A program made the position numbers and the translations under genes. A DNA stretch of 64,000 bases from an uncultured Chloroflexia bacterium (GTDB lineage: Bacteria; Chloroflexota; Anaerolineae; CG2-30-64-16). The notes beneath the pieces were generated by a model. It saw nothing but the letters and a program-made list of their open reading frames with translations, ran no database searches and had not been told where the DNA came from. The stretch covers positions 224,001-288,000 of the forward strand of contig CAWEMM010000009.1 in assembly GCA_963810095.1 (NCBI GenBank), written 5' to 3'. Below, in pieces: positions 11,365 through 34,052 of the stretch (position 1 is the stretch's first letter; each line of letters opens with the position of its first letter).

Positions 11365-11398
11365 GCGGTGTACGGCGGCCCGGTCGGGCCAATCCGAT

Positions 11399-11618: not shown

Positions 11619-11632
11619 AGCTACATCGCCGG

Positions 11633-12931: not shown

Positions 12932-13058
12932 ACTTCCCTCCATGTCTGTACGTCTCTCAAAATGTTTGGCTCTTGCCAATGTCAATCTCAACGAGGATAG
13001 ACTATCCGGTGTTCCAAGTCATCGTCCAAATTGCGTATTTCCGCCCGTCGCCTGCCTC

Positions 13059-14440
13059 TCACTTCGGCTGCGTCATTTTGGCGGCCAGGTCCTCCAGCAC
13101 ACTCGGGTTGCACGTCTGGCCGTTGGCCTGTGCTACCGTGGCCGTATAGCCGCGCTTGCCGCCGCCCGCCGGATTGTCCGCGACGATATACATGCGCACC
13201 GCCGGGCACTGGTACCCCTGCATCTTCACCCCGCTCGCCATCGCGATCTGGGTCGAATTCCCTTGCGAGGTATAGTCGAGGCGGACTCCCTGCATGTCGA
13301 TGCCCAAGTCCGCCAGGTCTGCCCGGGCCCATTCCTCCACGCCCACCTCGGGCGCATCGCGCACCCAGACCATGTCGGCCAGATAGGCGTTGCCCTGGTA
13401 GTCACCTTGCAGGTGAGCCGTATCGCCAAGGCGATCCATCGTCCACCCTTCGGGATACGCGAACGAGAACGCATTGAAGAAGCGCGGTCTGCTGCCAGCC
13501 CGCGCCCGTGGGACTGGGCGTAGCCGTAGGGGCAACCTGGGTTGCTGCCGCGGTCGGGCTTGCCTCGGGACGGACGGGCGTCGCAACGGGCTGCTCCGTC
13601 CCCCCCACTTGGGCCAGGTAGGCGTCGACAAACGCGCTCGAGGGCCTGCGGATCGCACGCTGCCCCTTCCGCCTGCGACACGACCCCCAGCGCCTGCCGC
13701 TGGTTGCGCCCGGCCGGGTTGGCGGTCCAGAGGTACACGTATGCCACCGGACAAGCGTAGTCAGGGTCCTTCACGCCGCCCACCACGGCGATCTGTACGT
13801 TTCCGGCCTGCGCGTAGCGGACGTTCGCGCCGTCGATGCCCATCCGCTGGAGGTCCCCGCTCACCCATTCCTGCAGCGACCCCGCGTGGACCTGCACGCT
13901 CCTGGTCAGCTGGAACACGACATCGCGGTTCTGCCACGATCCGGTCATCAGCAAGGCGTCGCCGCGTTCGCGCACGGTCCAACCGGGCGGGTAGGCGAAT
14001 GGGAAGGCGTCTTTGAAGCGTCCGAGCTGCCAGCCACCTTGCTTGGCTTCCCCTTGGCCGCCAAACAAGCGCGAGCTGAAGCTCTGCCACCAGGTGGCGA
14101 CGTCGGGGCGCCCGTTGCCCTGGGATGCAGGCAGAGTGTCGCCTGCGTTACCCTGGTTTGCCTTGGCCTTGCCTTTGCCGTTGCCGTTGTTGCCCTCGTT
14201 CTTGCCGTTCTTGCCCTTATCCTGGTTACCCTTGCCGTTATTGCCCTTATCGTCTTTTCCGGGGTTCGGCTTGTCGGCCCTCGGTCCGGGTTGGAACGAG
14301 GCTGCGTACGAGCCGGCTTCGGTGCTGCTTCCGGGCAGGCGCGCCGTGTCTTGCGCGGCCATACTTTGTGCAGCGCAGCCCGACAGCGCCATTGCCGCCC
14401 CCATTGTCAAGGCAAAGAAAGTGCCCTTGAAGCCCTTCAT
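13059..14440 (-). CDS. Lipoprotein with two copies of a two-Cys PsbP-like domain (frameshifts ~13630, ~13487)
   Basis: Lipobox ALSGC and a G/K/N low-complexity stretch. Domain 1 is FPFAYPPGWTV...CPVAYVY...CDP, then a PT linker, then domain 2 FSFAYPEGWTM...CPAVRMY...CNP. Confidence 0.75.
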
Positions 14441-14457
14441 TTTCGATCCTCCTGGTA

Positions 14458-15135
14458 TCAACTTCGCACCTCCGCGATCAACGCGTCGGCAAGTCGCTCC
14501 ACGTTGGCCGCGTCGCAGGCCGTCTTATCCGTCTGCGAAACGGTCAGAACCAGGTAGTTCTGCTCGCCGGCGAGTTTGTCGGTGCGGGCATATACCCTCA
14601 CGGCCGGGCACGACCCTTCAGGTTGCCCCGGCAGATGCAGATTCGTCACCTTGAGTGCCGGTAGGGTCTGGATAGTTGCGTCCACCCTGGGTGCACCGCC
14701 CTGACCGATCTGCTCCAGGTCCTGCTTCGCCCATGCCCCTAAGTCCTCCGTCTTGACGCCGGTGGGCCTGACGATTTCAACCTTGTATTCGTGCTCGCCA
14801 TAAGCGCCGGTTAGCACGATCTCGCCGGTTCCGGGCCGGTCGACCGTCCAGCCGTTCGGATACCCGACGTCCCACACGTCGAAGAACCGGTGCCGCTCCC
14901 ACGCCCCGACCTCGCCCGTCTGCGGCGTGCTGCCCAAGATCGACGGCGTCTCGGCCGCAGCTTGGCTTGAGCCGCCCTGTTGAACCGGATCCACCACGTC
15001 TGGTGCAGGTGTATACGATTGTTCGCCCGTCGTGCTGCCGACGCCATCCTGGCCCGCAAATCCGCTTGCGCCGCAGCCCGCTAGCAGTACTGCCAACACG
15101 GCGAGAGCGGCGAAGAGACTCCACAATTTCTTCAT
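14458..15135 (-). CDS. Lipoprotein with one two-Cys PsbP-like domain
   Basis: MKKLW...LLAGC lipobox, WDVGYPNGWTV...CPAVRVY...SQTDKTACD. Confidence 0.8.
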   Translation of the reverse strand: MKKLWSLFAALAVLAVLLAGCGASGFAGQDGVGSTTGEQSYTPAPDVVDPVQQGGSSQAAAETPSILGSTPQTGEVGAWERHRFFDVWDVGYPNGWTVDRPGTGEIVLTGAYGEHEYKVEIVRPTGVKTEDLGAWAKQDLEQIGQGGAPRVDATIQTLPALKVTNLHLPGQPEGSCPAVRVYARTDKLAGEQNYLVLTVSQTDKTACDAANVERLADALIAEVRS

Positions 15136-15185
15136 CAAGCTTACTCCAAACGCATTAAGTGTCATTTTCAACACGATCGTTCAGC

Positions 15186-15227
15186 AAAAAAAGTTCCGCC
15201 ACCACCGCAGCTGCGGTGGTGGCGGAA
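15186..15227 (-). terminator. Intrinsic terminator after the FG-GAP gene
   Basis: Perfect palindrome TTCCGCCACCACCGCAGCTGCGGTGGTGGCGGAA followed by T7 on the minus strand. Confidence 0.85.
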
Positions 15228-15252
15228 TCTGCGCCAGGTCAGTTTGGGACGA

Positions 15253-17493
15253 CTAGTTCGTCATCGTCGCATTGTTCATGATGACCGGCAGGAACATGCG
15301 CGACCCGCGCGTCGGGCTTGCCGTAGGCGTGGCTGTTTCGGTCGCCGTCGCCGTCGGGGTCGCCGTATGGGTCGGGGTGCTGGTCGGCGTATGGGTCGGC
15401 GTCGACGTCTCGGTCGCCGTGGGCGTAGCGGTCGGTGTAGGCGTGTCCTGCGGTTGGAACCGGATCAGCAGCCGCGCCGCCATCGCCGGATTGCTTTCGT
15501 AAGCCGCCCACGTCGCATAGTTTTGGGCGCCGGGAGCCGGGTCGACCAGCAGCGCCAGGTTATTGCCCGACTGCCAGTCCTGCCGGTCCAGAATTTCCTG
15601 CACAACCGACGTGAGGTCGGGAGAGTTCACCCATCCGCCCGCCCGGCTCGTGAGCGTCCAGCTTACCACGGACGAAGTGCGGGGCCGGTTGCTGATCTCG
15701 CGATAGCCGCCATAGAAGTCCTCCGCCTCGCCCCGGTCGTCGCCCGCCAGAACGAGCGGGACGGGCAGCCCACTCTGATACCGGGCATCGAGTTGCAGCG
15801 TGGCGGACATCACCCGGGCGCCGTGCGGGATCTCGATGTTCCGGAAGAGGAAGCCTCCGCTGTAGAGCGCGCCATCGGTGTTGCCGCCCGTCGTCACAGT
15901 GTCGAGCAGCGGGTAGACAACCCCGGTGTCGGTTCGCTCGTGCGCGTCGTCGTAGCAGTTGGCGATCTGCCGCTCGAGCAGCCCGGCCGCAGGTCCCGGC
16001 ACGCTTGACGTCGGATGCGGGGTGGCTGTGCCGAGGCAGGCCGCTCGCGTGGGGCTCGGGGTCGGCGTGACTTCAGGGGCGCCGGCATAGACGAAAACCG
16101 CGCCTGCGTCGATCCGCTCGACGGGATCAAAGCCCGGCGTCCCGATCGCGAGGTCTGCAAAGCCATCGTTGTTGAAGTCGGCCCCGGCGCCACTCTGGCC
16201 GTACAGGTCGCCGGCGGCCATTCCCGCCTGGCTCCATGCCGGCGGCGTAACGAGGCCGGTCGCCGAGCCGTAATAGAGCTCGGCAGCGCCGGCTTCGGAC
16301 CCGGTGGCGGGCGCCCCGATCAGAACGTCGTCGAAGCCGTCGCTGTTCGTGTCGCCTACGACGGCGATCGTCGCGCCGAAACCTGCCAGTGACGCGCCGC
16401 CATCCAGCGGTGTGCCCGTTGCCGGCAGCCCTCCGGATGCGCCCATGAAGTACGTAACCCGGCCCGTCTGACCGGACGGCCCGGTATACTGGGGGGCGCC
16501 GACAAAGACGTCGGCCAGGCCGTCGCCGTTGATGTCGCCTGCTGCGACCGCGGCCCCGCACTGCGCCTGGTCCTGGTCGCACTCGAAGGTCCAACCGGGC
16601 GTCGTCGCAACGCCGCCTGCGCCGCCGGCAAACAGGAATGCCGCGCCCTCGTTCGGCTGGCCGTTCGAGTACATGGGCGCGCCGGCGACCACGTCGGCTG
16701 CGCCGTCACCGTCGGTGTCACCAACTGCCACGCTCTGCCCGAAGCGCGCACCCGCCTGGTTGATCTCCAAGGTCGCCGCGCCGGACGTCGAGGGACCCGT
16801 GCCAGACCCGTAGTACACGAACACCGCGCCCTCGTCGACCTCGCCGTTATCCCAGCCGGGCGCGCCGACAACCAGATCGGAGAAGCCGTCGGCGTTTACG
16901 TCGCCACCTCCCAGGGCCAGGCCGAAGAGGCTGGACGGCTGCCCCGTGACCTCAAATGCAGGTGTCGGACTCAGGCCGGCCGCGGTCCCAAGATACACGT
17001 CAACCCGGCCGGCGTCGATATTGGCGCCGTCATCATAGTAGACGCCCGCGACGGCCACGTCTGCATAGCCGTCGCCGTTCACGTCGCCGATGCCGGCCAC
17101 GCTGAGCCCATACTGCTCGCCGCTCTGGGCGCCCGTGAGGGTCAGGGCGGGCGCGGGGGAGAGGCCCGTGGACGAGCCGTAGTAAATCTGTGCGCTGCCG
17201 GCGTCGGTCAGGGTGGGATCACCGACCAGGTCGGCGAGCGGCGCGCCGGCGATCAGATCGGCATAGCCGTCGCCGTTGATGTCGCCTGCGCTGGCCATGC
17301 TGCGCCCCAGCGCGTCGCCAGCCGAGCCGCCCTCCAGAACAACCGTGGGCGTAGTTACCGGGGCGGAAGGGGCCGCCACCCGTGGGGCCCGTGCCGTGCC
17401 GGCCTGCTGCGCCAGGCTGCTCGATGCCAGGGGCACGAGCAGTGCGAGCAGCAGCAAACCGGTGAAAAGGGGAGAGTACTTCTTCACTGACAT
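15253..17493 (-). CDS. Secreted FG-GAP (integrin-alpha-like beta-propeller) repeat protein with PT linker and C-terminal FLPVI tail
   Basis: Signal peptide, ~7 GDxNGDGxxDxxxGAP repeats, a beta-rich C-terminal domain, TPTPTAT linker, [16 protein letters not shown]. Confidence 0.9.
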
Positions 17494-17708
17494 TGCCTGA
17501 CCTCCTCGAACTCTTCGATACGTCGTACAACGTCCCGCCTGAAGTACGGCATACGCGGCGGACAGTGGGCCGTGTATGCGCGCCATGTTAGCATATGGCA
17601 AGCGTATTTGAGAAAAGCACCGCGACGACGGCGCGCAACCGAATGCACCTGGAAGCGTACTATAGTAAGGAACGTTCAACTATCCCGCAGGTGACACGGA
17701 GGTTTCAC

Positions 17709-18465: not shown

Positions 18466-18825
18466 AGGTCTATCCTCCAAGGGAAAAGACGCCTTCACAT
18501 CATAAACTGATGGCGTCTCAGCGTCGTGCAGGAAGCGACGCGGCCAATCTACTCTACACCACTTCTAACGCAGCAACATCGGCGGGATTACGGGCAGAGC
18601 CCTACAACTTTTGTCCTATTTTCTCTCGAATTCCTGATCAGATTTCATACAACTTCCCCGCTACGCTGGTGTTAACGCTTCTGGTGCGCGCGACGGGTGC
18701 CGGTCCAAGGGGCGATTTGGCCGCTGACGAGGGCCGGTCTATACTGAAGTGTAGCTTTAGTTACACCTCGCTTCGTGTTCGCGCATTGCCGTTCGCACAA
18801 TTCCAGTCCGGAGGTTCCATCGCCC

Positions 18826-20466
18826 ATGCCTGGCCTCGATTCCGAAACTCTGCAAATGGTGCTGGCCACGCTTCAGAAATACGCCGACAAAAAGCTCCCC
18901 GAAAAGCTCCTGCTTGAACTGGATCACAACGATGAGTTCCCGCGCAAGGTTCTGAAAGAGCTCTATGACCCGCGGCATCTGGGTTTGCACCTGGTCTTCA
19001 TCCCGGAGTCGTTCGGCGGGTTGGGCGGCGGCGCATACGATATATACCGCGTCTCAGAAGTCATGGCGGCCGTCGACCTGGGGATTGCGACAGGCGTGCT
19101 TGCTACATTCCTGGGCAGCGACCCGATCACGGTGGGCGGCACCCCGGAACAGCAGGCCCACTGGATGGGCCGTATCGCGGAAGAGGGCCTGCTCGTCGCC
19201 TACGGCGCCACCGAACCCCAGGCCGGCAGCGACCTAGGGGCGCTGAAAACCCGCGCGGAGCCGGTCGCCGTGGACGGTACGGTGACGGGGTACAAGATCA
19301 CCGGACGCAAACAGTGGATCTCGAACGGCGGGGAAGCGGACGTCTACACCGTGCTCGCACTGGCCCCCGGCGGACCGACCTGGTTTATTCTCGAGCGCGG
19401 CGCAGAGGGGTTCACGCAGGGTAAGCCCGAGGACAAGCACGGCATCCGGGCGAGCAACACGGCGGCCCTCTTCCTCGAGGACGTTTTTGTCCCAATCGAC
19501 CGATTGGTCGGTGGGGTCGAAGGGCAGGGCCTCATCCAGGCGCAGGCGGTGTTCGGCTACACCCGGCTGATGGTGGCCGCGTTCGGCTTGGGTGCGGGCT
19601 GGGCCGCGCTGAAGCGCGCGATCCGCTACTCGCAGCAGCGGATCCAGGCCGGCGCCCCTCTCTCTCAGAAGCAGGGCTACACCCACAAGCTGATCGTCCC
19701 CAACGCGTGCCGGCTTGAAGCGGCCCGCTCGTATATCGAGTGGACCGCCGCCCGGATCGACGACGGCGCCGGCAATCTACAGACGGAGGGGGCGGTCGCC
19801 AAGTACGTTGCGACCGAGGGCGGCAACCGGGCGGCCGAAGACAGCATCCAGGCCATGGGCGGCTACGGCTACGCCAAGGAATACATGGTCGAGAAGATCA
19901 AGCGCGACGTCCGCATCACCACGATCTACGAAGGCACGTCCGAGATCATGGAATGGACCATCGCGCGCGACCGGTGGCAGGAACACCTCAAGACGCGGGG
20001 CGGCTACTATCTCGACTGGGCCACGCGGCTGGAAGCTGCACATGCACAGCACGCCGACACGGGTGCGGGAACCGCGGCCCTTGCCGTGCGAGCACTGGCG
20101 GTCGTGCTGGAACGGTGCCGCACGGAGCGACTGACGCGCAACCAACACGTCCTCTTCCGCCTCGGCGAGCTGATCGCCTGGGCGGAGACGGCTGCGGTGT
20201 TCAGCGAGCGCACGGCCGGGTATCCGACCGCAGCGATCAACCTATCGCCCGAGACCGAAAGGACGATGGCCCGCATCTATGCCCGCGAAGCCGCCTTGAA
20301 AGTCGCAGTCGACGGCCTCCGGATCGTCGCCGGCGCGCTGCCGGCGGCCGCAGCACCGGACCTGGCATCGCAGTTGGGCCTGCCGGCCATTTATGCCGGC
20401 CAGGCCGGCCTGCTCGAAGACATGGACGCGGTCGCGCTCAAGCTGAACGAGGCGTTCCCCGGCTGA
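18826..20466 (+). CDS. Acyl-CoA dehydrogenase family protein with C-terminal extension
   Basis: [45 protein letters not shown]. Confidence 0.93.
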
Positions 20467-20619
20467 GCCGGCGTGGCGCCTGGCGCGCGGTTCGACGATG
20501 AAGCATTTCGGGCACATAGCGTCAAGTGTTGCGTTGCGGCCGCGCCGCGGCCCCGGCGTTCCGACCAACCGGCGCCACAAGTTTTGATTCTACCCCTCTA
20601 TCGCTGGAGGAAAGCAGAC

Positions 20620-23600
20620 ATGGGTGACCCTGCAGAGAGGGCGGTCGCCATCGTCGGCCTCGGCGCGATGATGCCCGACGCCGGCGATGCGCGTGCCTTC
20701 TGGACCAACATCACGCAGAAGCGCTACAGCATCACCGAGGTGCCTCCTGAGCGGTGGCGCGTCTCCGACTATTATGACCCCGACCCCGCAGCGCCGGACA
20801 AGACTTATTCGAAAATCGGGGCATGGGTGCGCGGGTTCGAGTTCGATTGGAAGCAGCACCGGATTCCGCCCAAGGTCGCGGCTGCCATGGACGAGGGTCA
20901 GCAGTGGGCAGTTACCATCGCCGCGCAGGCTCTGACCGACTACGGGTATCCTAATCGCCCGCTGGACACCGACCGCACCGGCGTCATCCTTGGCAATGCG
21001 ATCGGCGGCGAGCAGCACTACATAACGACTCTTCGGGTCATGTCGCCCGAACTCGTGCGCCTGCTCGACGACGTCGAGTCCTTCCGTGCACTTCCGGAAG
21101 CCACTCGCCAACGCGTCCTGTCCGAATGGCGCCGGGCCATCGGGCAGGCATTTCCCGAGATCACCGAAGACACCATGCCGGGCGAGCTGCCCAACATCAT
21201 TGCGGGCCGTGTCGCCAACGTGCTTAACCTCCGCGGCCCCAGCTTCATCGCCGACGCAGCCTGCGCCTCGTCCTTCGCGGCGATCGCCTCCGCGGTCGAG
21301 TTGCTGGCCGAAGGCCGCTGCGATGCGGTGATAGCCGGAGGTGTCGATCGCAACATGGGACCGTCGACCTTCGTCAAGTTCTGCAAGATCGGCGCGCTGA
21401 GTGCGACCGGCACCCGGCCCTTTGGCGACGGCGCAGATGGCTTCGTGATGGGCGAGGGTGCGGGTGCGTTCCTCTTGAAACGGTTGTCCGACGCGGAAGC
21501 GGCCGGCGACACGATCTACGCGGTCATCCGCGGCATCGGCGCGTCCTCGGATGGTAAGGGGAAAGGCATTACCGCGCCCAACCCCGTGGGCCAGATGCTG
21601 GCCGCCCGCCGGGCGTGGGAGAATGCAGGCCTCGACCCCGCCACCGCAACGCTTCTCGAAGCACACGGCACGAGCACGCGCGTCGGCGACGTGACCGAGG
21701 TCGAGAGCCTCAGCCAGGTCTTCGGCCACGCTCCGAAGGGCGCGATCGCGCTCGGCTCGGTCAAGAGCAACATCGGGCATCTGAAGGCCGGCGCGGGCGC
21801 GGCTGGGCTTCTCAAGACCGTCTGGGCGATGCATGAGAAGCTGCTGCCGCCCACGCTCAATGCCCGGCCGTCCAATCCGAAGGTGGACTTCTCGCAGACC
21901 CCGTTCGAGCTCAATCACGAGCTCCGTGAATGGCCCGCCGCTGGCGGCCAAACCCGGCGGGCCGGGGTCAGCGCGTATGGCTTCGGCGGTACGAATTTTC
22001 ACCTGGTGCTTGAAGAGCACGTGCCGGGCATGCTGGCGGGCAATGGGCGAAAGGTGCACGCCGTCGCCGCGCCCGAACAGGTGCCGGCGCCGCGGATGGC
22101 CGCAGCGACTGAGCGGGCGCCGGTGCCAGCCGGTGCGCCTACCGGTTCAGAGCAACCCCTGCCCCGCGCTCCCCTCGCCCGCCCCGCGCCCCTCCAGGGC
22201 ATCCTGGCGCTCTCGGCAGATGATCCTCAGGCGCTCAGCGCGAAGGTGGAAGCGACGCTGGCACGGGTTGCGAACGGCTGGTGCCCGCCGCTCCAACTCC
22301 CCGCGGCGGCCGACGTGGCCGGTGCGGAGCGCCTGGTGATCGATTTTGCCGGCCGCCAGGAGCTCGAAGAGCGGCTCGTGAAGGCGCGGAAGGCCATTTC
22401 CCTCGGCACGCCGGCCGCCTGGAAGCCGCTGGCTTCCCAAGGGGTGTACCGGGGCAGCGGGCCGATGCCCGGCAAGATCGCATTCCTCTTCCCCGGGCAG
22501 GGCAGCCAGACGCTGAACATGGCGCGCAAGATCGCCGGCGTCGCACCCAGCGTGGCCGCGATGTTCTCAGAAGCGGACGGCATCATGCAGCCCATCCTCG
22601 GCCGGCCGCTGAGCAAGTTCGTCTGGGTCGACGCGACCGAGCCGGACGACGTCAAGCGGGCCGAGGACGAGCTTCGCCAAACGGCCATCACCCAGCCCGC
22701 GATGCTGACGGTCGACGCCGCGCTGCAGCGGCTGCTTGCGGATTACGGCTTCCGTCCCGACTACCTCATGGGTCACTCATTGGGCGAATACGCCGCGCTG
22801 GTGGCCTCGGGCGTCATGCCCTTCGCGCACGCACTGGAGGCCACTGCCGCCCGCGGCCAGGAGATGACGCGGGTCAGCGTGAACGATCCGGGTTGGATGG
22901 CCGCCGTCATCGGTCCCTATGAAAAAGTTGCTCAGGTGCTCAAGGAAATCGACGGCTACGTCGTCGCCGCCAACCTCAACAGCCACAACCAGACGGTGAT
23001 TGGCGGAGCAACCGAGGCAGTCAAGAAGGCGATCGAGCGATTCAATAAGTCCGGGCTCAAAGCGATGCGCATCCCGGTCAGCCACGCGTTTCACACGCAG
23101 ATCGTCGCCTCCGCTGCCCGACCGCTGCGCCAGGTGCTCGACCGGCTCAGTTTCAGCTCGCCCCAAATCCCGGTCATTGCCAACGTCACGGGCGAGTTGT
23201 ACCCCTCCGACCCGCAGCACGTCAAGGACTACCTGGAACGCCAGATTGCCTCGCCGGTACAGTGGGCCAAGGGGCTGGAAACGCTTTATGGCTTGGGCGT
23301 GCGCGTCTTCATGGAAGTGGGGCCCAAGAAGGTGCTGAAGGGGTTTGTGGACAACGTGCTGGCGGGCCGTCCCGACCTCGTCTCGCTTTTCACCAATCAC
23401 CCGGACTTCGGCGAGATTGCGATGTTCAACCAGGCGATCTGCGGCCTGTACGCGGCCGGCTATACGCCGTCCGAAGCCCCCGGCGTCGCGGTCCCCGTCG
23501 TCGCCCACGCTCCCGTTCCCGACCCGACGCTCTCGGCCCTCGGGAAAAATCCGGACAACGGTGCGGTGCGCCCGCTGTCCACACCCGTTCATACGGCGAC

Positions 23601-26600
23601 CCCGGCCGTCGCCAATTTCGAGGAATCTATGGCAGCCACCCCATCCTCCGAATCGCTTACCGCGCTCGCCCAGGTCCTGGCCCAGGCACTTCAGTCTGTA
23701 CCGGCCAACGCGCAAGCTGCGCCTCGTACGCCCGACCGTAACGACGTCCCGCTCGGCTCGGTCGTCATTTCCGGCGCCGGCCTCGGTTTGCCGGGCACGC
23801 GGCAAGCGCTTTATGGACCCCGACAATGCGCTGCGTATCCTGCGCGGCGAGCAGTTCATCGAGCTGTTGCCCGAGAGCGCGCGTGAAGCGATGGTGGGCA
23901 AGCGCATTACCCGGCTGGTGAAGGCCGAGGATGGCAGCGGCAGCTTCGAGACGATCGAAAACACGGCCGACGTGATCAAGTTGGCCGGGCAGCCGGGGCA
24001 GTTCGACCTGGCCGAGGAATTCGGCGTCCCAGAAAAGCTGGTCGAGGCACTGGACCTTGCGTCGCAGATCGCCATGGCCGCGGGCCTCGACGCTCTCCGT
24101 GAGTCAGGGATCCCGCTCGTGCAGACCTACAAGAAGACGAGCAAGGGCACCTATCTGCCGGATCGCTTCGTGCTGCCCCAGGCGCTGCGCGACGAGACCG
24201 GCGTGATCTTTGCGAGCGCCTTCCCCGGGCTCGATCGCTTTGCCGAGGAGTTGAAGCGCTATCACCGGTGGGAGGGCAAGGTCCAGCAGTTGGCGGCGCT
24301 GGAGGACTTGCGCGAGTACGCGGCGGCCGACGCCGGCGACGATGCGCTGCTGCGCGAGATCGACCGCCGCATCCATGCGCTGCGGGCCGACATGCAGCGC
24401 GACCCGTATACCTTTGACCGGCGCTTCCTCTTCCGCGTCCTGTCCATGGGACACAGCCAGTTCGCCGAGTTCATCGGCGCACGCGGCCCCAACACCCAGG
24501 TCAACGCCGCGTGCGCAAGCACGGCCCAGGCGGTCGCGTTGGCGGAAGACTGGATCAGGTCGGGTCGCTGCCGCCGCGTCCTCGTCATCGGGGGCGACGC
24601 GACCACCAGCGACAACATGCTCGAGTGGCTCGCGGCGGGCTTCCTGTCGGCGGGCGCGGCCGCGACCGATGACAGGGTGCAGGATGCAGCGCTGCCTTTC
24701 GACCGGCGGCGGCACGGCATGCTGACCGGGATCGGCTCCGTGGCGCTGGTCGTGGAGAGCGAGGACGCGGTGCGCGAGCGTGGGATGCGGGGCATCGCCG
24801 AGGTGCTGGCGACGGAGACGGCCAACAGTGCCTTCCACGGCACCCGCCTCGACGTCGAGCACATCACCCTCGTGATGGAGCGCCTCGTCAGCTCGGCCGA
24901 GCGCCGCTTTGGCATCAATCGCTATGCTGTCGCAGGGCAAACGGTCTTCATGTCGCACGAGACCTTCACGCCGGCCCGGGGCGGCAGCGCGGCCGCGGAG
25001 GTAATGGCCCTACGCAACTGCTTCGGCCCCGCGGCAGATGAGATCGTCGTCGCAAACACCAAGGGTTTCACCGGCCATACAATGGGCGCCGGCGTCGAGG
25101 ATGTGGTGGCGATCAAGGCCCTGGAACACGGCGTAGTGCCGCCTGTCCCCAACTTTAAGGAGCCCGATCCCGAGCTGGGCGCGCTGAACCTGAGCCGAGG
25201 GGGCCGCTATGGCGTCCAGTACGCCCTGCGCCTGGCCGCCGGCTTCGGGTCACAGATCAGCATGACCCTGTGCCGTCGCATTCCCGGCGGCCTTGACCGG
25301 GTCGACAACAAGCCGCGCTACGGGCGCTGGCTGGCCGACGTGAGCGGGTACGACCAGCCCGAACTGGAAGTCGTCCGGCGCACGCTGCGCATCAAGGGCG
25401 AGGGCGCGCCGCAACGCATGCCGGTGGGCAGCGCCTGGCAGTACGGCACCGGTCCAAGCGTGCGTGCGGCGGCCCCCGGCGACACCGGCGGCGCGTTCCG
25501 CCCCATGCCGATGGCGGCCGTAAGGCGAGTCATGGCTGCAGGCCAGGGGGCGCATGCGGTCGAGCTTCCGACAGTCCCGCACCCGGCGCCTGCCCAACCG
25601 GCGGCTCCGCCGAAGCAGGAGGAGCCGGCCCCGGCCGTCGAAGCCGTCCGCGTGGTCGCGCCGGATCTTGGCGCAGAGAACCGGGAGAAACCAGGTCTCT
25701 CCGAGAAACCCGGTTTCGTGCCCGCTGGGGCGGCGCCGGCTGATGCGGTGACGCCGCAGGTGTTGGCGATCGTCGCCGCGAAGACGGGTTACCCGCAGGA
25801 CATGCTCGACCTGGAGCTGGACCTGGAGGCGGACCTGGGCATCGACACGGTGAAGCAGGCGGAGACGCTCGCGGCGATTCGCGAGGCCTTCGGCATCCCG
25901 CTGCAGGAGAACCTGTCGCTGCGCGATTACCCGACGCTGCAAAGCGTGGTGGGGTTCGTCTATAAGTTCCGGCCCGACCTGGCCGCAGGCGAGTTGGAAC
26001 GCGAAGACGCTAAGGCGCCGGCAAGCGGGCGCAGCGAAGACGCGACGCACGAAGGCCGGCCGATAGAGGCGGTTTCGACCCCCGTTGGGCGCTCGGCGCC
26101 CGCTGTGGCAAAGGCGGCTGATGCGGTGACGCCGCAGGTGCTGGCAATCGTGGCCGACAAGACTGGGTATCCGCAGGACATGCTCGACCTGGAGCTGGAC
26201 CTGGAGGCGGACCTGGGCATCGACACGGTGAAGCAGGCGGAGACGCTCGCGGCGATCCGCGAGGCCTTCGGCATCCCGTTGCAGGAGAACCTGTCGCTGC
26301 GCGATTACCCGACGCTGCAGAGCGTGGTCGGCTTCGTGTACAAGTTCCGGCCGGACCTGGCGGCAGGAGAGCTGGAACGCGGAGACGCGAAGGCGCCGGC
26401 AAGCGGGCGCCGCGAAGATGCGAAGCACGAAGGTCGCGAAGGCCGGTCGATGGAAGTAGTCTCGGCCCCCGTTGAGCCCGCTGCGCCCGCTGTGGCAAAG
26501 CCGGCTGATGTGGTGACGCCGCAGGTGCTGGCGATTGTAGCGGACAAGACCGGCTACCCGCAGGACATGCTCGACCTGGAGCTGGACCTCGAGGCGGACC

Positions 26601-29376
26601 TGGGCATCGACACGGTGAAGCAGGCGGAGATGTTCGCGGTCGATTCGCGAGGCCTTTGGCATTCCGCTACAGGAGAACCTGTCGCTGCGCGATTACCCGA
26701 CGCTGCAAAGCGTGGTCGGCTTTGTGTACAAGTTCCGGCCGGACCTTGCTGCAAAAACCGCAGCGGGCGATGGGACCAGAGCTGAGCAGCCCTCGGTACC
26801 TCTCGTCCCCTCAGTCGCCCCTGATTCCTCTGTGGCAGAGACCGCGGGGCGGCGATATTCGATCGAGGACGCAAACCGGATTCCGCGTCGCGTGCCTGTT
26901 GCCAGCCTGCGGCCCGCGCTGAGCCTCTGCAAGCCAACCGGCGTGGAACTCCGCGCAGGTTCGCGGGTGGTCGTAATGGCCGACGAGGGTGGCGTGGGCA
27001 AAGCGCTGGAAGCGCGCTTGCGTAAGCTGGGCGTCACTGTCCTCGGGCTCGAACCCGGCATTCCGACGGCCGATCTCGAAGGCCGGCTCAAGGCGTGGCT
27101 GGCCGAGGGGCCGGTGCAGGGGGTCTACTGGCTGCCCGCACTCGACGTCGAACCTGGCCTCGATAAGCTTGATTTGGCGGGATGGCGGGAGGTGAACCGC
27201 CGCCGCGTGAAGAACCTGTATGCCGCCATGCGAGCGCTGTACGACTCGGTCGCCGGCTCGGGCGCATTCCTGGTCTCAGCGACCCGGCTCGGCGGCCTGC
27301 ACGGCTATGGGCCGGGCGGCGCGAGTGCACCTGCCGGCGGCGGCGTTTCGGGCTTCACGAAAGCCTACGCCATGGAGCAGGGGCTGCGCGAGGGCAAGCG
27401 GCTGACCGTGAAGGTCGTCGACTTCGAGCAGGGCGCCAAGCCCACCGACGCGGCCTCGATGCTGGTCGAAGAGACCTTATACGACCCCGGCGTGATCGAG
27501 GTCGGGCGGCACGGTAGCATGCGCTATTCGGTCACGCTGCAGGAGCGCCCCGCACAACACGGCGGCCCCGGCTTGCAACTGGGACCCGGCACCGTGTTTC
27601 TCGTTACCGGCGCGGCGGGCGGCATCACCAGCGAGATCGTGGCCGACCTCGCGGCTGCCAGCCAGGGCGTCTTCTACCTGCTGGACCTGGCAGCACTGCC
27701 CCCGCGGGACGACGGGCACGTGGCGGCTTTCCGCAAGGGGCGCGATGCGCTGAAGGCGGTGCTGATCGAAGAGGCGCGCAGCCGCAGCAACAAGCCCACC
27801 CCGGCAGCTATCGACAAGCAGATTGCCGCAACCGAGCGGTCCGAGGCGGCGCTGCGCGCAGTGGAAGCGGTCGAAGCGGCAGGCGGCACGGCGCACTATC
27901 ACAGCGTCGACCTTCGGGAGGCCGAGGCGTGTGCGGCCGTCATCTCCGACGTCCGGCAGCGCTACGGCCGGCTCGACGTGTTCGTCCATGCGGCCGGCTT
28001 GCTCGTGGACCGCACGCTGCCCAACAAGGAGCCCGCCCAGTTCGATCTCGTCTTCGATGTCAAGGCGGACGGTTGGTTCAATCTGATGTCGGCTGCCGCC
28101 GATCTGCCCATCTGCGCGGCGGTCGCATTCAGCTCCGTGGCGGGGCGGTTCGGCAACAACGGCCAGACGGACTACTCGGCCGCAAACGATCTCTTGTGCA
28201 AGCTGAGCAGCGGCCTGGCCCGCAGCCGGCCCGGGGCCCGGGGCATCGCCATCGACTGGACCGCGTGGGGTGGAATCGGCATGGCTTCCCGGGGTTCCGT
28301 GCCGCAGATCATGGAGGCGCTCGGCGTCGACATGCTCCCGCCTGAGTGCGGCGTGCCGACCGTGCGTCGGGAGCTGATCAGCGGGAACGCTGCGGGTGAG
28401 GTGGTGGTTGCGGGGCGGTTGGGCGCGTGGCTGGAAGAGCGCGACCCCAGCGGGGGGCTCGACGCCGAAAAGGCGGGCGCGTTCCTGGCAAGCCGCCAAC
28501 CGCGCCTGCCAATGGTGGAAAAGATCGTCGCGTGCAAGCTGTACGGCGGCGTGGAGATCGAGACGACGTTGGACCCGAGGGAGCAGCCCTTCCTTTTCGA
28601 CCATGCGCCCGACCCCGAGACGCCCTGGCTGCCCGGCGTGATGGCGACGGAAGCGTTGGCCGAGGCTGCAGTCGTGCTCGCGCCCGGGTATCACGTGGCC
28701 GCAGTCGAAAACGTGCAGATGCTCGGTGCGTTCAAGTTCTTCCGGATGGAGCCGCGCACGCTGTACCTCAGCGCGGTGGTCACGGCGGGCGGCGGTGGAG
28801 AGCTAGTGGCTCGGGCGACGCTGCGCTCGATCACCCGGCCGGCGAAAGACAACGTGCCGCCGCAGGTCAAGGAGCACTTCGTCGCCGACGTGCGGCTGCA
28901 GCGCAACGCACCCTCGGTCGACAAGGTGACGTTTGAGCCGCCCGCGAAATCCCTGCTCGACACGGGACGAGAGGAAATCTACAAGCTTTTCTTCCACGGC
29001 CCCGCTTACCAGGTGCTGGAATCCGCCGGGGTGCGGAAGGTAGAGGCGGTCGGCGTACTCCCCCGGCAGCTGCCGCCCGATCTCAGTCACAAAGAGCCGA
29101 ACGGCCATGCGATCCTGATGGCGCCCGCGGCTGATCGAGTCCATGTTCCAGGCGGCCGCGTTCTGGAACGTGCGGCAGAAGGGCGCAATGGCCTTCCCGC
29201 TCGGCGTCGGCTCGGTCACGACCTATCGCGACCCCGCCACGGCCAACGGCAAGCGGCTGTATGCCGTCGTAAGCACCTCAGACCAGGGGCAAACCTTCGA
29301 CGGCCGGGTGGTCGACGAAGAAGGCGAGGTGTACGTGGAACTGCGTGGCTACCGGACCGTGGCCCGGCCGGCCTAA
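20620..29376 (+). CDS. Iterative type I PKS/FAS, KS-AT-KS-ACP-ACP-ACP-KR-DH (frameshifts ~23800, 26640, ~29128)
   Basis: KS1: DAACASS/EAHGT/NIGHL. AT: GHSLG/HAFH. KS2: NAACAS/SHET/FTGHT. Three ACPs with [10 protein letters not shown]: [18 protein letters not shown]: [19 protein letters not shown]. Spans four ORFs joined by single-base shifts. Confidence 0.9.
25740..26750 (+). repeat. Three near-identical ~240-bp ACP-coding direct repeats
   Basis: [42 protein letters not shown]...YKFRPDLAA at ~25740, ~26118 and ~26505. Confidence 0.95.
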
Positions 29377-29386
29377 GCAACCAAAC

Positions 29387-29589
29387 TGAAATGGGACACT
29401 GATACAACTGAGTGAACTGATCCACACTGACCTTTTGAACCTGTCGCCAGGCGAAAATGCTCTGGCCGGTCTCCGACCGAGCCAGGGGGCACGGTCAGAG
29501 ACCGGCCCCAGCCAACATTTTCACGCTGCGACTCGTTTGGTAAAGATCGTGATAATCAGTCGAATCCGTCCAATCAGTGTCCCATTTCA
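29387..29589. mobile_element. MITE-like element with perfect 17-bp terminal inverted repeats and a nested REP-like hairpin
   Basis: TGAAATGGGACACTGAT...ATCAGTGTCCCATTTCA. Internal GGCCGGTCTCCGACCGAGCC/GGCACGGTCAGAGACCGGCC at 29464-29507. Extra half-copy at 29630-29664. Confidence 0.65.
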
Positions 29590-29667
29590 CCCCTCGTTGT
29601 CCAGCAGCGCAGGGCGAAGGTCTAAAACCGAAATGGCACGCTGATACAACTGATTGAACCGATCTGC

Positions 29668-29676
29668 TGGTACAAT
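29668..29676 (+). promoter_or_regulatory. Extended -10 promoter (TGgTACAAT), probably leaderless
   Basis: Ends 6 nt before the ATG at 29683, with no SD. Confidence 0.6.
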
Positions 29677-29682
29677 CCTCGT

Positions 29683-30396
29683 ATGTATCCTTCACCCGAC
29701 CCGCGCATCTTCTGCCTGCTCCAGTCCACCTCCGCGCATCCCGGGCTCGCCGCCGCCGAGCCCCCGCCCGGTCTGCTTTCGGCGGCCGAGCAGGCCCGCT
29801 GCGAGAAGTTCGCGGTGCCAAAGCGCCGTCGTGACTGGCTGCTGGGACGCTGGACCGCCAAACACCTCGTCCGGGCATACCTTGCCGAAGCTCGAGATAG
29901 GCTAGTTCCGCTGGACGAGATCGAGGTTCTCGCCGGCGACGACGGCGCGCCCTACGTCCAGGTGGGCGAGCCGCTCCCGCTCAGTCTCTCCATCAGCCAC
30001 AGCGGAGTCGAGAGCTTCTGTGCGGTGTGCCGGGCAAAGGACGGGCACGTTGGTGCGGATATCGAGCAGGTCGAGCCGCGCGAAACCGGCTTGGTGCATA
30101 CCTTCTTCACCCCTGCCGAGATCGCAGTGGTCGACGCGGCCGTGGCCTCCGAGCGCGACGCGTACATTACCGCGATCTGGAGTGCGAAGGAAGCGGTGCT
30201 GAAGACGCTGCGCCTCGGCCTGCGCGCCGACACCCGGCAGGTCGAGGTCGCCATCTCACGGCTCAGCCCAGAGTGGCGTGCATTCTCCGTGGTCGTCGAC
30301 TCAAGGCTCCTTCCCTCGCCCGTGTCGGCTGTCGCCGGCTGGTCTCGCATCGATCCCCGCCGCGTCCTCTCACTCGCCATGCTCGCCCTCGGCTAA
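29683..30396 (+). CDS. Sfp-type 4'-phosphopantetheinyl transferase
   Basis: RRRDWLLGRWTAK, GAP, SISHS, GADIEQVE, WSAKEAVLK. Confidence 0.93.
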   Translation: MYPSPDPRIFCLLQSTSAHPGLAAAEPPPGLLSAAEQARCEKFAVPKRRRDWLLGRWTAKHLVRAYLAEARDRLVPLDEIEVLAGDDGAPYVQVGEPLPLSLSISHSGVESFCAVCRAKDGHVGADIEQVEPRETGLVHTFFTPAEIAVVDAAVASERDAYITAIWSAKEAVLKTLRLGLRADTRQVEVAISRLSPEWRAFSVVVDSRLLPSPVSAVAGWSRIDPRRVLSLAMLALG

Positions 30397-30522: not shown

Positions 30523-30577
30523 TACAAACCCCTTGACAACATTATACAAACATGATATATATGTCCAAGGTTTGTAT
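30523..30577 (+). promoter_or_regulatory. Sigma70-type promoter with overlapping operator-like repeats
   Basis: TTGACA at 30533, 17-bp spacer, TATATA. TACAAAC occurs twice and inverted GTTTGTA once. Confidence 0.55.
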
Positions 30578-30617
30578 CGACAAGCAATCGTCGCAGCGCA
30601 AGTGGAGGAGCAAAGGC

Positions 30618-31772
30618 ATGGGTTTCTACCTCGCCCTGAAAGAAATCTGGCGCACCCGGGGGCGCTTCATCCTGTTCAGCATGGTCATCGCACTGATCAC
30701 GATGCTGGTTCTGTTCGTCGCCGCCCTCGCCGAGGGCTTGGGCTCGGGCAACCGGGAATACATCCAGAAGCTCAACGCGGACCTGATCGTCTACCAGTCG
30801 AAGACGGACCTGAGCGCCGGTGCAAGCCGGATCGGGACCTCCAAGCTCAACGAGATCCGCCGGGTGGACGGCGTTTCGGCCGTGGGGCCCATTGGCGTCG
30901 CCAGCGTGACCCTGACCCGAAACGGCGAGAAGGTGCTCAATGTGGCGCTGGTCGGCGTCGAGCCTGGCATGCCGGGCGAGCCGCCCGCGCTGCAGGGGCA
31001 GGGCCTGGGCAGCCGCCGGGCGCGTGAGGCGGTTTTGGACCGCAACGTGGCACTGCGGGCCAAGGTCGGCGTGGGCGACGTGATCACGATCAAGTCGATC
31101 CAGGGGACAAACGAGGAATATTACGACCTGAAGGTGGTCGGCATCAGCGACGGCCGCCAGTACAGCCTGCAGCCTTCGGTCATCGTACCCTTCCGCACCT
31201 GGGACGAACTCCGGCCCCAGCCCGCGAAGGGCGGCTCGGGCAACGCCGAACTGGTCGCCAACATCGTTGGCGTGCAGCTGGCGAACCCGCAGGACTGGGA
31301 GGCCATGGCGCAACGCATCCAGAACGAGGTGTCCGACGTGCAGGTGGTCGACCGGGTGACGGCGTACCAGGCGACGCCGGGCTACAGCGCCCAGCAGAGC
31401 ACGCTCGACACGCAGCGCTACTTTGCCCTGTTGATCGGCATCCTGGTCATCGGCGGCTTCTTCCAGATCCTGACGCTGCAGAAGGTAGCGCAGATCGGCA
31501 TGCTGAAGGCCATCGGCGCCTCCAACCGGGTGGTCGGCACTGCGGCGATCATCCAGATCATTGCGGTCACGGTCATGGGTGTGGCCCTGGGCGCGGCCTT
31601 CTCGCTGGCCCTGTCGCTCGGCTTTCCGCCCACTGTGCCGATCATCTTCTCGCCCGCGGCGGTCTCTGCAGCTGTGCTCTCGCTGCTCCTGATCGGCCCC
31701 ATCGGCGGCCTGGTCTCGGTTCGCTACTCGCTGAAGGTCGAGCCGCTCACGGCTCTGGGCCTCGCGCAATGA
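30618..31772 (+). CDS. ABC transporter permease (FtsX/MacB-type)
   Basis: N-terminal TM, large extracytoplasmic domain, QIGMLKAIGAS, three C-terminal TMs. Confidence 0.92.
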   Translation: MGFYLALKEIWRTRGRFILFSMVIALITMLVLFVAALAEGLGSGNREYIQKLNADLIVYQSKTDLSAGASRIGTSKLNEIRRVDGVSAVGPIGVASVTLTRNGEKVLNVALVGVEPGMPGEPPALQGQGLGSRRAREAVLDRNVALRAKVGVGDVITIKSIQGTNEEYYDLKVVGISDGRQYSLQPSVIVPFRTWDELRPQPAKGGSGNAELVANIVGVQLANPQDWEAMAQRIQNEVSDVQVVDRVTAYQATPGYSAQQSTLDTQRYFALLIGILVIGGFFQILTLQKVAQIGMLKAIGASNRVVGTAAIIQIIAVTVMGVALGAAFSLALSLGFPPTVPIIFSPAAVSAAVLSLLLIGPIGGLVSVRYSLKVEPLTALGLAQ

Positions 31773-31778
31773 CATCGG

Positions 31779-31869
31779 AATTGGATGCAGATTGAACGGG
31801 TGGAGCGGATTCCGAAGGTTTATCTGAGACAACTCAACGCCGGTCAATGAGTCCGATCGGCGTCCCAGT
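31779..31869. repeat. Degenerate copy of the GGGACACTGAT inverted-repeat element
   Basis: ttggatgcagattgaacgg...tccgatcggcgtcccag between permease and ATPase genes. Confidence 0.45.
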
Positions 31870-31889
31870 GGGGAATTGTGGAGTAAAGA

Positions 31890-32681
31890 ATGTTTGCACT
31901 CGAGACGCGTGATGTGTTGAAGGCTTATGGGTCTGGGACCTCGGTGACCAGGGCCGTGGACGGAGTGTCGATTGGCGTGCGCAGCGGTGAGTTCGTGGCA
32001 CTCGTCGGGCCCAGCGGTTCGGGGAAGACCACCTTGTTGGCCATGCTCGCCGGCCTGCTGCGCCCCACGAGCGGCGACCTCCTGATCGACGGGAACGAAC
32101 TGGGCCGCATGAAGGACGGGGAGCGCACCGCCTTCCGCCGCCAGCGGATCGGGTTCACGTTCCAGGCTAACAACCTGGTGCCCTTCCTGACGGCGCTGGA
32201 GAATGTCGAGCTGATGCTGCGGCTGAACGGCCGGCTGGACAAGGCGGGCAAGGCGCGGGCCCGCGACCTGCTGGAACGCTTGGGGCTGGGCGACCGCCTG
32301 AACAGCCTCCCCCGGCAGTTGTCCGGCGGACAGCAGCAGCGGGTGGCCATTGCCCGTGCGCTTATCCACGAGCCCGCGGTCGTCCTGGCCGACGAGCCGA
32401 CGGCCAGCCTCGATACGGAGCGCGCGTTCCAGGTCGTCGAGACCTTCGCCACCATGATCCGTGAGCAGAACCGGGCGGGCATCATGGTTACGCACGATCT
32501 GCGCATGATCCAGTACGTGGACCGGGTGCTGCAGATGCGGGATGGCAAGCTGGCTCGGGAGATTACGGATCGCGACGAGATCATGCTGATGGCGGGCACC
32601 GGGCTGCACGACGCACCGGTCGCCGCCAACTGGCCGACGCCCACACCCGTGCTGGCAGTCGAACCCGTGGTCGTGCAGTAA
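31890..32681 (+). CDS. ABC transporter ATP-binding protein (LolD-like)
   Basis: GPSGSGKTT, LSGGQQQRVAIARAL, LADEPT, VTHD. Confidence 0.96.
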   Translation: MFALETRDVLKAYGSGTSVTRAVDGVSIGVRSGEFVALVGPSGSGKTTLLAMLAGLLRPTSGDLLIDGNELGRMKDGERTAFRRQRIGFTFQANNLVPFLTALENVELMLRLNGRLDKAGKARARDLLERLGLGDRLNSLPRQLSGGQQQRVAIARALIHEPAVVLADEPTASLDTERAFQVVETFATMIREQNRAGIMVTHDLRMIQYVDRVLQMRDGKLAREITDRDEIMLMAGTGLHDAPVAANWPTPTPVLAVEPVVVQ

Positions 32682-32753
32682 CCACAGACCACCGAATCGT
32701 TGTTGAGTTTCTCGCGGTCGTTGGCCGCTGCGTTGGAAGAGGGAGATCATCTC

Positions 32754-34052
32754 ATGAAGAAGTTCGTTATTGCGGGGATCGTTGTGCTCGTATTGATGGC
32801 AGGCGGGGTCGCAGCGTTTACGATGCAGCGCACCGCGAGTGCGCAGGCCGAGCAGCCGGCGACGGCTGCTGCGGCAGAGCCGAACCGGGGCGTTGTGGCA
32901 GAAGGCGTTGTCGTGCCGGTCGAATGGGCAGCGGTGAGCAGCCAGGCCGGCGGCCGGGTGGCCGAGGTTCTGGTGCGCGAAGGCGAGCAGGTGACCGCGG
33001 GCCAGGCGATGGTGCGGGTCGAGTCGAGCCGCCAGGCCGCGGCAGTGGCCCAGGCCGCGGCCGGCCTTGCGCGAGCCCAGGCCCGGTTGGCCGAACTGAA
33101 GGCCGGCCCTCGGGCCGAAGAGATCGCGGTGGCCGAGTCGGCCGTGAGTGTCGCACAGGCCCAGTTGGGCCGGGCGCAGCAGGGTGCGAAGGCCGAGGAC
33201 GTGGCCGCGGCGGAAGCGGCTGTCGCCGCAGCGCAGGCCAGCCTGAACAAGGTGCTCGAGGGTGCAGCGCCCGGCGCGCTGATCGCAGCTCGCACCGACC
33301 TGGCCAATGCCAAGGCGGCGCTGGAAGTAGCGCAAGCCGGTTACGACAAGGTCAAGGGCAACCCGGACGTCGCGGCCTCACCCCAGTCGCTCCAGCTCCA
33401 GCAGGCGACGAACGTGTACAACGCGGCGCAGGCCCGTCTCTCTGACCTCGAGCGCGGGGCCAGCAAGGCCGATGTGGATGCGGGCCGCGCCCGTCTTTCG
33501 CAGGCCCAGGCCCAGCTAAGGGCAGTGCAGGCGAGCGTTCGACCGGCAGACGTGGCCGTGGCCGAGGCCCAGGTGCAGGCGGCCCAGGAGCAGCTGAAGC
33601 TGGCGAAGGCGGGCGCACGGCCCGAAACGATCGCAGCAGCCGAGGCGGACGTCGCAGCGGCGCAGGCCGGCCTCGACCAGGCAAAGGCCGGGCTGGCCGA
33701 GACCGAGGTGAAGGCGCCCTTTGCCGGTACCGTGGCCGCCCTCACGGTACGCCTGGGCGAGCAGCTTGCGCCCGCAGCCCCCGTTGCGCAGCTCGCCAAC
33801 CTGAGTGCATGGCAGGTCGAGACCTCCGACCTGACTGAACTGCACATTGCCGGCGTCAAGCCCGGCGATACCGTCGGCCTGACCTTCGACGCCCTGCCGG
33901 GCGTCAGCATGAACGGCACGGTCACGCGGATCAGCGACGTGGGCGTGAGCAACAAGGGCGACATCGCCTACAAAGTCACGGTCCAGCCCGAGCGGACTGA
34001 TCCCGGGCTCAAGTGGAACATGACAGCGGCGGTCACTTTCCCCACCCGCTAA
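32754..34052 (+). CDS. HlyD/efflux membrane-fusion adaptor protein
   Basis: N-terminal anchor, lipoyl-like halves GGRVAEVLVREGEQV and VKAPFAGTV, long Ala-rich coiled coil. Confidence 0.9.
   Translation: MKKFVIAGIVVLVLMAGGVAAFTMQRTASAQAEQPATAAAAEPNRGVVAEGVVVPVEWAAVSSQAGGRVAEVLVREGEQVTAGQAMVRVESSRQAAAVAQAAAGLARAQARLAELKAGPRAEEIAVAESAVSVAQAQLGRAQQGAKAEDVAAAEAAVAAAQASLNKVLEGAAPGALIAARTDLANAKAALEVAQAGYDKVKGNPDVAASPQSLQLQQATNVYNAAQARLSDLERGASKADVDAGRARLSQAQAQLRAVQASVRPADVAVAEAQVQAAQEQLKLAKAGARPETIAAAEADVAAAQAGLDQAKAGLAETEVKAPFAGTVAALTVRLGEQLAPAAPVAQLANLSAWQVETSDLTELHIAGVKPGDTVGLTFDALPGVSMNGTVTRISDVGVSNKGDIAYKVTVQPERTDPGLKWNMTAAVTFPTR

Follow-up and report, generated by a model that had tools for sequence, protein, structure and literature searches.

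Shulse & Allen (2011; PMC3098273) described a type of secondary lipid synthase, Type R, in which one pfaA homologue of domain order KS-MAT-CLF-ACP(3-6)-KR is followed by a downstream phosphopantetheinyl transferase (PPTase) gene, with Koribacter, Solibacter, Elusimicrobium and Roseiflexus as hosts and, according to the portion of that paper available to us, an unknown product. Here we analyse a locus of this kind in a 64,000-nucleotide stretch of DNA from an uncultured Chloroflexia bacterium (assembly GCA_963810095.1, contig CAWEMM010000009.1, positions 224,001 to 288,000; hereafter the window, with positions counted from its first letter). The window likewise has a single pfaA homologue, with ketosynthase (KS), malonyl acyltransferase (MAT or AT), a second KS or "CLF", tandem acyl carrier protein (ACP) domains and a ketoreductase (KR), and here too a PPTase gene lies directly downstream. 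Judged by the same portion of the paper, the cluster type is already described as Type R; the point that concerns us, a Thr at the attachment site of the carrier domains, is not part of that text, where the word "threonine" has 0 occurrences. The top matches in a search seeded on the window ACPs bear the source names Roseiflexus sp., Candidatus Koribacter and Elusimicrobium posterum, which is a correspondence of names only and not of a tree with the paper's sequences. From the sequence comparisons and the structural model set out below, we consider it probable, though well short of certain, that the downstream Sfp-type PPTase puts 4'-phosphopantetheine on the ACP Thr of this Type R synthase, making it a threonine-linked carrier system.

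To our knowledge the textbook view holds the acceptor Ser of carrier proteins to be invariant, and the PROSITE phosphopantetheine pattern requires it. Pfam domains and motifs place one synthase at 20620-29376 on the forward strand, with the order KS-AT-KS, three ACPs, KR and dehydratase (DH). Its parts, and the PPTase gene, are as follows.

20620..23805, forward strand: synthase segment 1, with KS1 (~20638-21864) and AT (~22483-23340), from Pfam ketoacyl-synt and Acyl_transf_1; stops at frame break 1
23804..25600, forward strand: KS2, the second ketosynthase-like domain ("CLF" of Shulse & Allen), from Pfam and NCBIfam KS matches
25742..25987, forward strand: ACP1, Thr codon ACG at 25847-25849
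26120..26365, forward strand: ACP2, Thr codon ACG at 26225-26227
26507..26752, forward strand: ACP3, Thr codon ACG at 26612-26614; split by frame break 2
26649..29126, forward strand: synthase segment 3, with a linker, KR (~27594-28271) and the N-terminal part of the PS-DH dehydratase, from Pfam KR and tblastn; stops at frame break 3
29125..29376, forward strand: synthase segment 4, the C-terminal end of the DH region and the stop codon TAA (29374-29376), from tblastn with residues 3206-3287 of the L029 synthase
29683..30396, forward strand: Sfp-type 4'-phosphopantetheinyl transferase, 237 aa, from Pfam ACPS and 4PPT_N

A preliminary description of this DNA had reported ACG codons for Thr at 25847, 26225 and 26612, and these are indeed found, one in each of three tandem ACPs that form a 378-nt tandem repeat (2.7 copies, 89% matches). 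The region matches the Pfam PP-binding domain (PF00550) with 75.4 bits against a cut-off of 20.8, and the per-domain scores in the genome search were 36.9 and 38.7 bits. The D-S expected of this domain at the start of helix II is replaced by D-T in all three copies, within the attachment motif DLGIDTVKQ; in phmmer alignments with PDB chains, the Thr falls on the Ser of PigH (DLGVDSIALAE), CurA (DLGLDSIVGVE) and the ACP chain 2fq0 (DLGADSLDLVE). A profile search of the part of the contig covered by the window gave no further PP-binding match, which bears out the earlier statement that the cluster holds no other carrier protein. Equally, the KS, AT, KR and DH active sites that had been called intact could all be located, by the motifs DAACASS, EAHGT and NIGH in KS1, GHSLGE and AFH in AT, TGAAGGI and YSAAN in KR and FDHAPD in DH, and the same holds for KS2, where NAACAST, SHETF and GFTGH keep the Cys and both His.

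The homologues of the synthase show that Thr is not a peculiarity of this gene. An ACP-seeded search, which relies on shared words, gave 6593 matches among 8000 candidates, and we inspected the best 120 (1844-3270 aa, mostly ~3000 aa), whose source names include Caldilineaceae, Roseiflexus, Kouleothrix, Oscillochloris, Acidobacteria, Koribacter, Elusimicrobium and Saprospiraceae. Thr was present in 592 of the 592 motifs of the type LG[VI]DTVKQA[ED] in these proteins, the 15 other matches to the loose pattern being unrelated strings. A survey free of ACP bias was made with the KS2 domain alone as query against 1.84 billion representatives, keeping the best 150 relatives; 21 of these, many of them fragments, had no ACP domains, and the 367 ACP domains in the other 129 had Thr at the site in 345 cases, Ser in 13, a gap in 4 and some other letter in 5. 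The preliminary description had allowed that homologues might mostly carry Ser, the Thr then being a recent inactivating change; the opposite was found. Thr also occupies all 178 readable sites in the 182 ACPs encoded upstream of related PPTases. At the level of codons, 208 ACPs from 64 loci use ACG (119), ACC (59), ACT (17) and ACA (13), with more than one Thr codon among the copies in 23 of the 64 loci, and not one of the 208 sites has a Ser codon, though it is only one base change away. The surrounding attachment motif, E.ADLGID.VKQAE, has the same top residue in 95-100% of sequences per column, apart from A at 80% and I at 87%. Because no other ACP column exceeds 28% Ser, there appears to be no alternative attachment Ser. 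The number of ACP copies per family protein ranges from 1 to 8, and intact orthologues of 2878-3292 aa from five contiguous genomes, with 3-6 Thr-ACPs each, carry Thr throughout. Going by these comparisons, Thr is the dominant, selected state of the family and bears the mark of long purifying selection; it seems to be an old trait of its carrier domains that selection has retained.

One might take the Thr for a sequencing artefact, or for an inactivating change of recent date that repeat homogenisation spread while the gene decayed, since the synthase has three frame breaks and its repeats are 89% alike. The window synthase is collinear with an intact 3292-aa homologue over residues 46-3287, but tblastn spreads it over four reading-frame segments (20608-23805, 23804-26638, 26649-29126 and 29125-29370), with breaks near 23801-23805, 26640 and 29125 that the preliminary description had not mentioned. 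The second of these falls in ACP3 and consists of a single surplus T near 26640, where gcggTcgattcgc stands against gcggcgattcgc in copies 1 and 2. Contigs of three public sequencing runs (X1, X2 and X5, from two studies) are near-identical to the window and have one base fewer at 23801; no contig spans the breaks at ~26640 and ~29125, for both of which the call of an error is by analogy only. A contig from run X5 also spans 25843-25950, the region of the ACP1 Thr codon, with zero differing letters. In the same genome (6.13 Mb in 16 contigs, 88.5% complete), rpoB, rpoC, two copies of dnaE and acpS are split over frames as well. In the numbering of its contigs used here, in which the window's is C9, these lie at C14:146935-155374 (rpoB and rpoC), C2:152126-155272 and C6:1013104-1016189 (dnaE) and C7:16331-16652 (acpS). 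Indel errors run throughout this assembly, and pseudogene calls in it need independent reads. Because essential genes are also broken and the independent contigs read without the surplus base at 23801, we read the synthase gene as intact, its three frame breaks matching assembly indel errors, at ~26640 and ~29125 presumably so, and we reject a pseudogene as the leading reading. The artefact or inactivation idea is refuted by these contigs together with the Thr of the whole family, across several phyla, and of the intact orthologues, and we give it practically no credence. The earlier judgement that a sequencing error was unlikely has thus held, the more so as four synonymous Thr codons are in use. 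As it is absent with the intact 3292-aa homologue, an apparent frame change at 28550, seen with the homologue P0056, was also rejected and put down to that protein. The spacer between the synthase and PPTase genes (29377-29682) varies among the public runs, with 61-121 nt skipped or replaced by other letters at 29421-29573 and small indels at 29484-29623, which suggests strain variation there. No RNA run is listed as holding the stretch.

The second element of the system is the PPTase. Its gene begins 306 nt after the synthase stop codon, and the product matches Pfam ACPS (PF01648) with 70.6 bits (1.4e-19) and 4PPT_N (PF17837) with 22.4 bits, the latter under the cut-off of 27; family and position thus agree with what the preliminary description had placed directly downstream. 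The protein aligns to Sfp residues 84-163 (19.8 bits), with ISHSG, GADIE and WSAKEAVLK lying on ISHSG, GIDIE and WSMKESFIK of Sfp, which contain the catalytic and metal-binding residues that we take to be numbered D107, E109, E151 and K155. GADIE and WSAKEAVLK are invariant in the clade of related PPTases. Since the Sfp motifs are conserved, phosphopantetheinyl transfer chemistry is to be expected. It can be imagined that the Thr instead receives a different group, e.g. phosphate or another prosthetic group derived from coenzyme A (CoA), but an ACPS-superfamily PPTase with intact Sfp-like catalytic motifs as the co-inherited enzyme speaks against this, and we regard it as very improbable.

Synthase and PPTase are inherited together, a co-occurrence that the preliminary description had proposed to look for. 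Among 301 genomes from the phylum, the window's own included, the synthase is present in 11, again counting the window's own (E <1e-200), six more matches at ~1e-31 to 1e-37 being generic KS. Ranked by similarity to the window's PPTase, the remaining 10 synthase genomes fill precisely the first 10 places (E 1.7e-41 to 3.0e-25, 38-45% identity); the next match, from a synthase-free genome, is at 7e-13, and nothing comparably strong occurs among the other 290 genomes, which include one unpublished genome, G173. These ten genomes are kin (seven of one family, two of a second and one of a third) and do not stand for ten independent events. Where an intact 2878-3292-aa synthase and the PPTase lie on one contig, a PPTase open reading frame (ORF) follows directly, in 5 of 5 genomes. 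Approached from the PPTase side, with one genome per species, a scan gave 556 relatives, and among the best 80 loci 69 had the KR-DH region of a synthase upstream on the same strand while 6 had too little upstream sequence, i.e. the PPTase is directly downstream of a synthase in 69 of the 74 informative loci. The window's genome holds two further enzymes of this function, AcpS and an Sfp-type PPTase linked to nonribosomal peptide synthetase (NRPS) genes. The latter, at C11:143456-143977, belongs to a large NRPS cluster (C11:78000-144000) whose PP-binding domains number at least 17, of which three are cut short by frame changes.

A predicted complex of PPTase, ACP, CoA and Mg scored 0.68, the best of three controls reaching 0.01; of 157 solved complexes 116 reach the mark used for such models, as do 2 of 215 mismatched pairs. 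Agreement between the model runs extends to at least 93% of contacts, with a partner pLDDT (predicted local distance difference test) of at least 84. In the model, Thr36 of the ACP contacts PPTase Glu170, which is aligned with the catalytic Glu of Sfp, and the Val that follows it lies against W166, E128 and T163; R133 and T184 are among the contact pairs listed, and residues 179-185 lie at the interface. The prediction shows likeness to solved complexes of the Sfp-peptidyl carrier protein type, and in that sense canonical docking, which is not proof that the Thr is modified.

Ser forms of the system exist and are informative as to the role of the Thr. In a KS2 tree of 91 rows (FastTree, local supports only), isolated Ser tips (P0171, P0164, P0240, P0232 and P0264) lie within Thr clades and require at least 5 changes, and one of these proteins is mixed, with S-T-S. 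Ser is the only recurring alternative at the attachment position, as would be expected if what counts functionally is the hydroxyl of the side chain. With the all-Ser protein P0171 as query, no relative was found in metagenome contigs. Two proteins, P0244 and P0266, have Thr-type ACPs starting with ELG rather than DLG and fall beside a Ser-type clade with weak support. That clade was recovered from metagenomes with a Ser DNA pattern covering ELG...DS forms only, so that its yield is not a census of Ser forms: 10 of 80 loci form a coherent Ser-type clade with KS2, and the remaining 70 lack KS2 and are PfaA-like. The sister clade has the motif ELG[VI]DS[VI]KQAE and a KS2 43.5-50.5% identical to that of the window; its own support is 100, the supports for its placement relative to the Thr forms being 28 and 54. 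It keeps the same operon, with a PPTase ORF after the synthase in all 7 loci with downstream sequence. These seven PPTases are far more distant (22-30% identity) and differ at positions invariant in the Thr clade, namely DWLLGRWTAK, R133, T163, S167, GLxVDTR and a C-terminal WW. The members (L129, L143, L166, L169, L173, L185 and L196) are metagenome contigs of 33-49% GC. At L185, the one locus scanned with Pfam, a short-chain dehydrogenase/reductase (SDR; adh_short_C2, the enoyl-ACP-reductase family) lies upstream instead of the acyl-CoA dehydrogenase-like gene that precedes the window synthase, together with genes for a TatD-like protein and for one that weakly matches a TBP domain; the upstream ORFs of L129 have the same sizes as those of L185, and those at the remaining loci of the clade have similar sizes.

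Taken together, these findings extend the Thr from one gene to an entire widespread family, and a Thr-linked carrier with a co-inherited PPTase appears to be the best explanation of them. In this model the synthase would be an intact, iterative type I PfaA-like enzyme of Type R, with the carrier Thr at the N-terminus of helix II. The downstream Sfp-type PPTase would move 4'-phosphopantetheine from CoA to the Thr hydroxyl to give O-phosphopantetheinyl-threonine carriers, and these would shuttle malonyl and growing acyl chains among KS, AT, KR, DH and the upstream dehydrogenase-like enzyme. We infer the modification of Thr itself, the part of this PPTase in it and the involvement of the dehydrogenase-like enzyme. 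As a chemical rationale one could speculate that phosphodiesters of Thr are less prone to beta-elimination than those of Ser.

Several points weigh against such a carrier. Many ordinary polyketide synthase clusters carry their own PPTase. The catalytic core of the window enzyme is, as far as its sequence tells, an ordinary one, and no determinant of Ser versus Thr specificity and no pocket change that would admit the methyl group was identified from it; the positions specific to the Thr clade may be plain phylogenetic signal. The model score may reflect memory of solved PPTase-carrier complexes. Five of the 80 PPTases, scattered inside the clade, lie in housekeeping surroundings away from a synthase, and the KS2 query found a synthase elsewhere in one of their genomes and none in the other four (metagenome-assembled genomes of unstated completeness). 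In the part of the source available, the S36T form of E. coli ACP "cannot be post-translationally modified" and serves as a dead control (PMC3340395), which would mean that a canonical PPTase rejects Thr. The exchange and its position are the same, but there it brings a loss of modification and function, and here it is the conserved natural state. That experiment, along with the housekeeping AcpP encoded at C11:319777, could be taken to mean that the Thr domains are never modified and are structural or scaffolding pseudo-carriers, the synthase using a free ACP or CoA-bound substrates. Such an arrangement would leave unexplained the strong constraint on the entire attachment motif, the retention of the PPTase gene in the operon in most lineages, the choice of Ser as sole recurring replacement and the spread in ACP copy number, and we think it rather unlikely. 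Variable ACP copy number resembles the working tandem ACPs of polyunsaturated fatty acid (PUFA) synthases.

The preliminary description had gone further and proposed a threonine-linked carrier with a co-evolved PPTase, i.e. an orthogonal pair. The first part has gained from the family-wide Thr and from the distinct, co-inherited PPTase clade; strict orthogonality is countered by the canonical core, by the Ser at this site in some family members, one of them mixed with S-T-S, and by the four genomes in which the KS2 query found no synthase, where the finding of clade PPTases implies that the enzyme may also serve Ser carriers. In its full form the proposal would be that O-(4'-phosphopantetheinyl)-threonine is widespread and installed by a co-evolved PPTase clade, and that housekeeping and other Sfp-type PPTases cannot prime Thr carriers, which we hold to be possible but doubtful. 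If true, Type R synthases would be insulated from other carrier systems, and a ready-made orthogonal ACP/PPTase pair would be present in Chloroflexota, Acidobacteriota, Elusimicrobiota, Bacteroidota and Myxococcota. Another reading, possible but not favoured, is that the Thr is modified and nothing is orthogonal, in that an ordinary pathway PPTase takes Ser or Thr, other Sfp-type PPTases would do so too, and the Thr is near-neutral or mildly beneficial, for instance through an elimination-resistant linkage. The canonical catalytic motifs, the Ser tips within Thr clades with their S-T-S protein, and the clade PPTases with no synthase nearby are in keeping with it. Yet Thr at ~95% and the absence of Ser codons from 208 sites call for selection against Ser and not for neutrality, the E. 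coli system, in the portion of the paper cited above, rejects S36T, and R133, T163, D183, T184 and R185 differ from the Ser-clade PPTases and lie in the modelled interface. On balance, strict orthogonality seems less likely than simple acceptance of Thr.

The remaining genes around the synthase are listed here.

18775..20466, forward strand: acyl-CoA dehydrogenase-family gene, 563 aa, directly upstream of the synthase, from Pfam Acyl-CoA_dh_N, _M and _1
30552..34052, forward strand: MacB-like permease, ABC ATPase and HlyD-family adaptor, from Pfam

By tblastn, the dehydrogenase-like gene is upstream at 57-78% identity in 4 of 5 complete loci and in 31 of 80 PPTase loci, and its product is far more conserved than the PPTase (37-53%). 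It is thus the operon's third conserved gene, and we infer for its product a candidate role as an enoyl reductase or desaturase acting in trans; it may act on carrier-bound acyl chains. The protein has ~160 extra C-terminal residues. The exporter genes were rejected as a part of the system, as they lie downstream in only 2 of the 57 related loci with at least 4 kb of downstream sequence. Upstream of the cluster, on the opposite strand, 15253-17679 encodes an 808-aa protein with six FG-GAP repeats. A second, paralogous Type R synthase of the same genome (C7:176043-183954; positions 8043-15954 of locus L027) has two Thr ACPs and many frame breaks; it has a NUDIX-domain ORF upstream and neither a PPTase nor a dehydrogenase-like gene adjoining.

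If the Thr is modified, it would be a new acceptor residue for one of the most universal post-translational modifications, and motif-based annotation that demands Ser would miscall these domains. The system would then be a candidate, supplied by nature, for labelling proteins orthogonally and for the insulation of engineered synthases. It would also provide a concrete handle on what Type R synthases make and do, a kind of synthase common among the Chloroflexota and Acidobacteriota of soil, sediment and wastewater. Within the full-text literature, subscription journals being outside its scope, no report of Thr-linked phosphopantetheine, of a Thr-for-Ser carrier or of the DTVKQ motif was found, and PMC12391972 and PMC13291983 hold nothing on Thr as acceptor.

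Compared with the known systems, the window locus shares with PfaA and PfaE of the PUFA synthases the tandem ACPs, the KS-AT...KR-DH order and a dedicated Sfp-type PPTase, and differs in the extra KS between AT and the ACPs and in its DLGIDTVKQ, where PfaA-like ACPs, such as those of the 70 metagenome loci lacking KS2, have (D/E)LGIDSIKR with Ser. The best NCBIfam model is accordingly PfaA (TIGR02813), whose cut-off of 1010.1 is reached neither by the window pieces (623, 146.4 and 150.1) nor by the intact homologue P0056 (967.3), and no NCBIfam model reaches its cut-off for this system. With Sfp and its peptidyl carrier protein (PDB 4mrt, 1qr0), the window PPTase has in common the two-lobed architecture of ~230 aa, the ISHSG, G-x-D-x-E and W-S-x-K-E-x-x-x-K motifs and a modelled docking that places the acceptor residue at the catalytic Glu; the differences are an acceptor that is Thr, not Ser, and the clade-invariant DWLLGRWTAK and GLxVDTR. 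The heterocyst glycolipid system (HglE, HetI and DevBCA) also combines a PfaA-like synthase with an Sfp-type PPTase, and in the window a MacB/HlyD-type exporter adjoins them. Membership in it was rejected on the scores for HetI (41.5 against a cut-off of 370), DevA (219.7 against 295.8) and DevB (62.6 against 129), and, as regards DevC, the permease had no NCBIfam match at 1e-10; the PPTase likewise scored 41.4 against 174 for AcpT. From the accessible text of the Type R description, the window differs, apart from the Thr, in that its "CLF" retains the Cys and both His, a DH follows the KR, and a conserved dehydrogenase-like gene stands upstream of the synthase.

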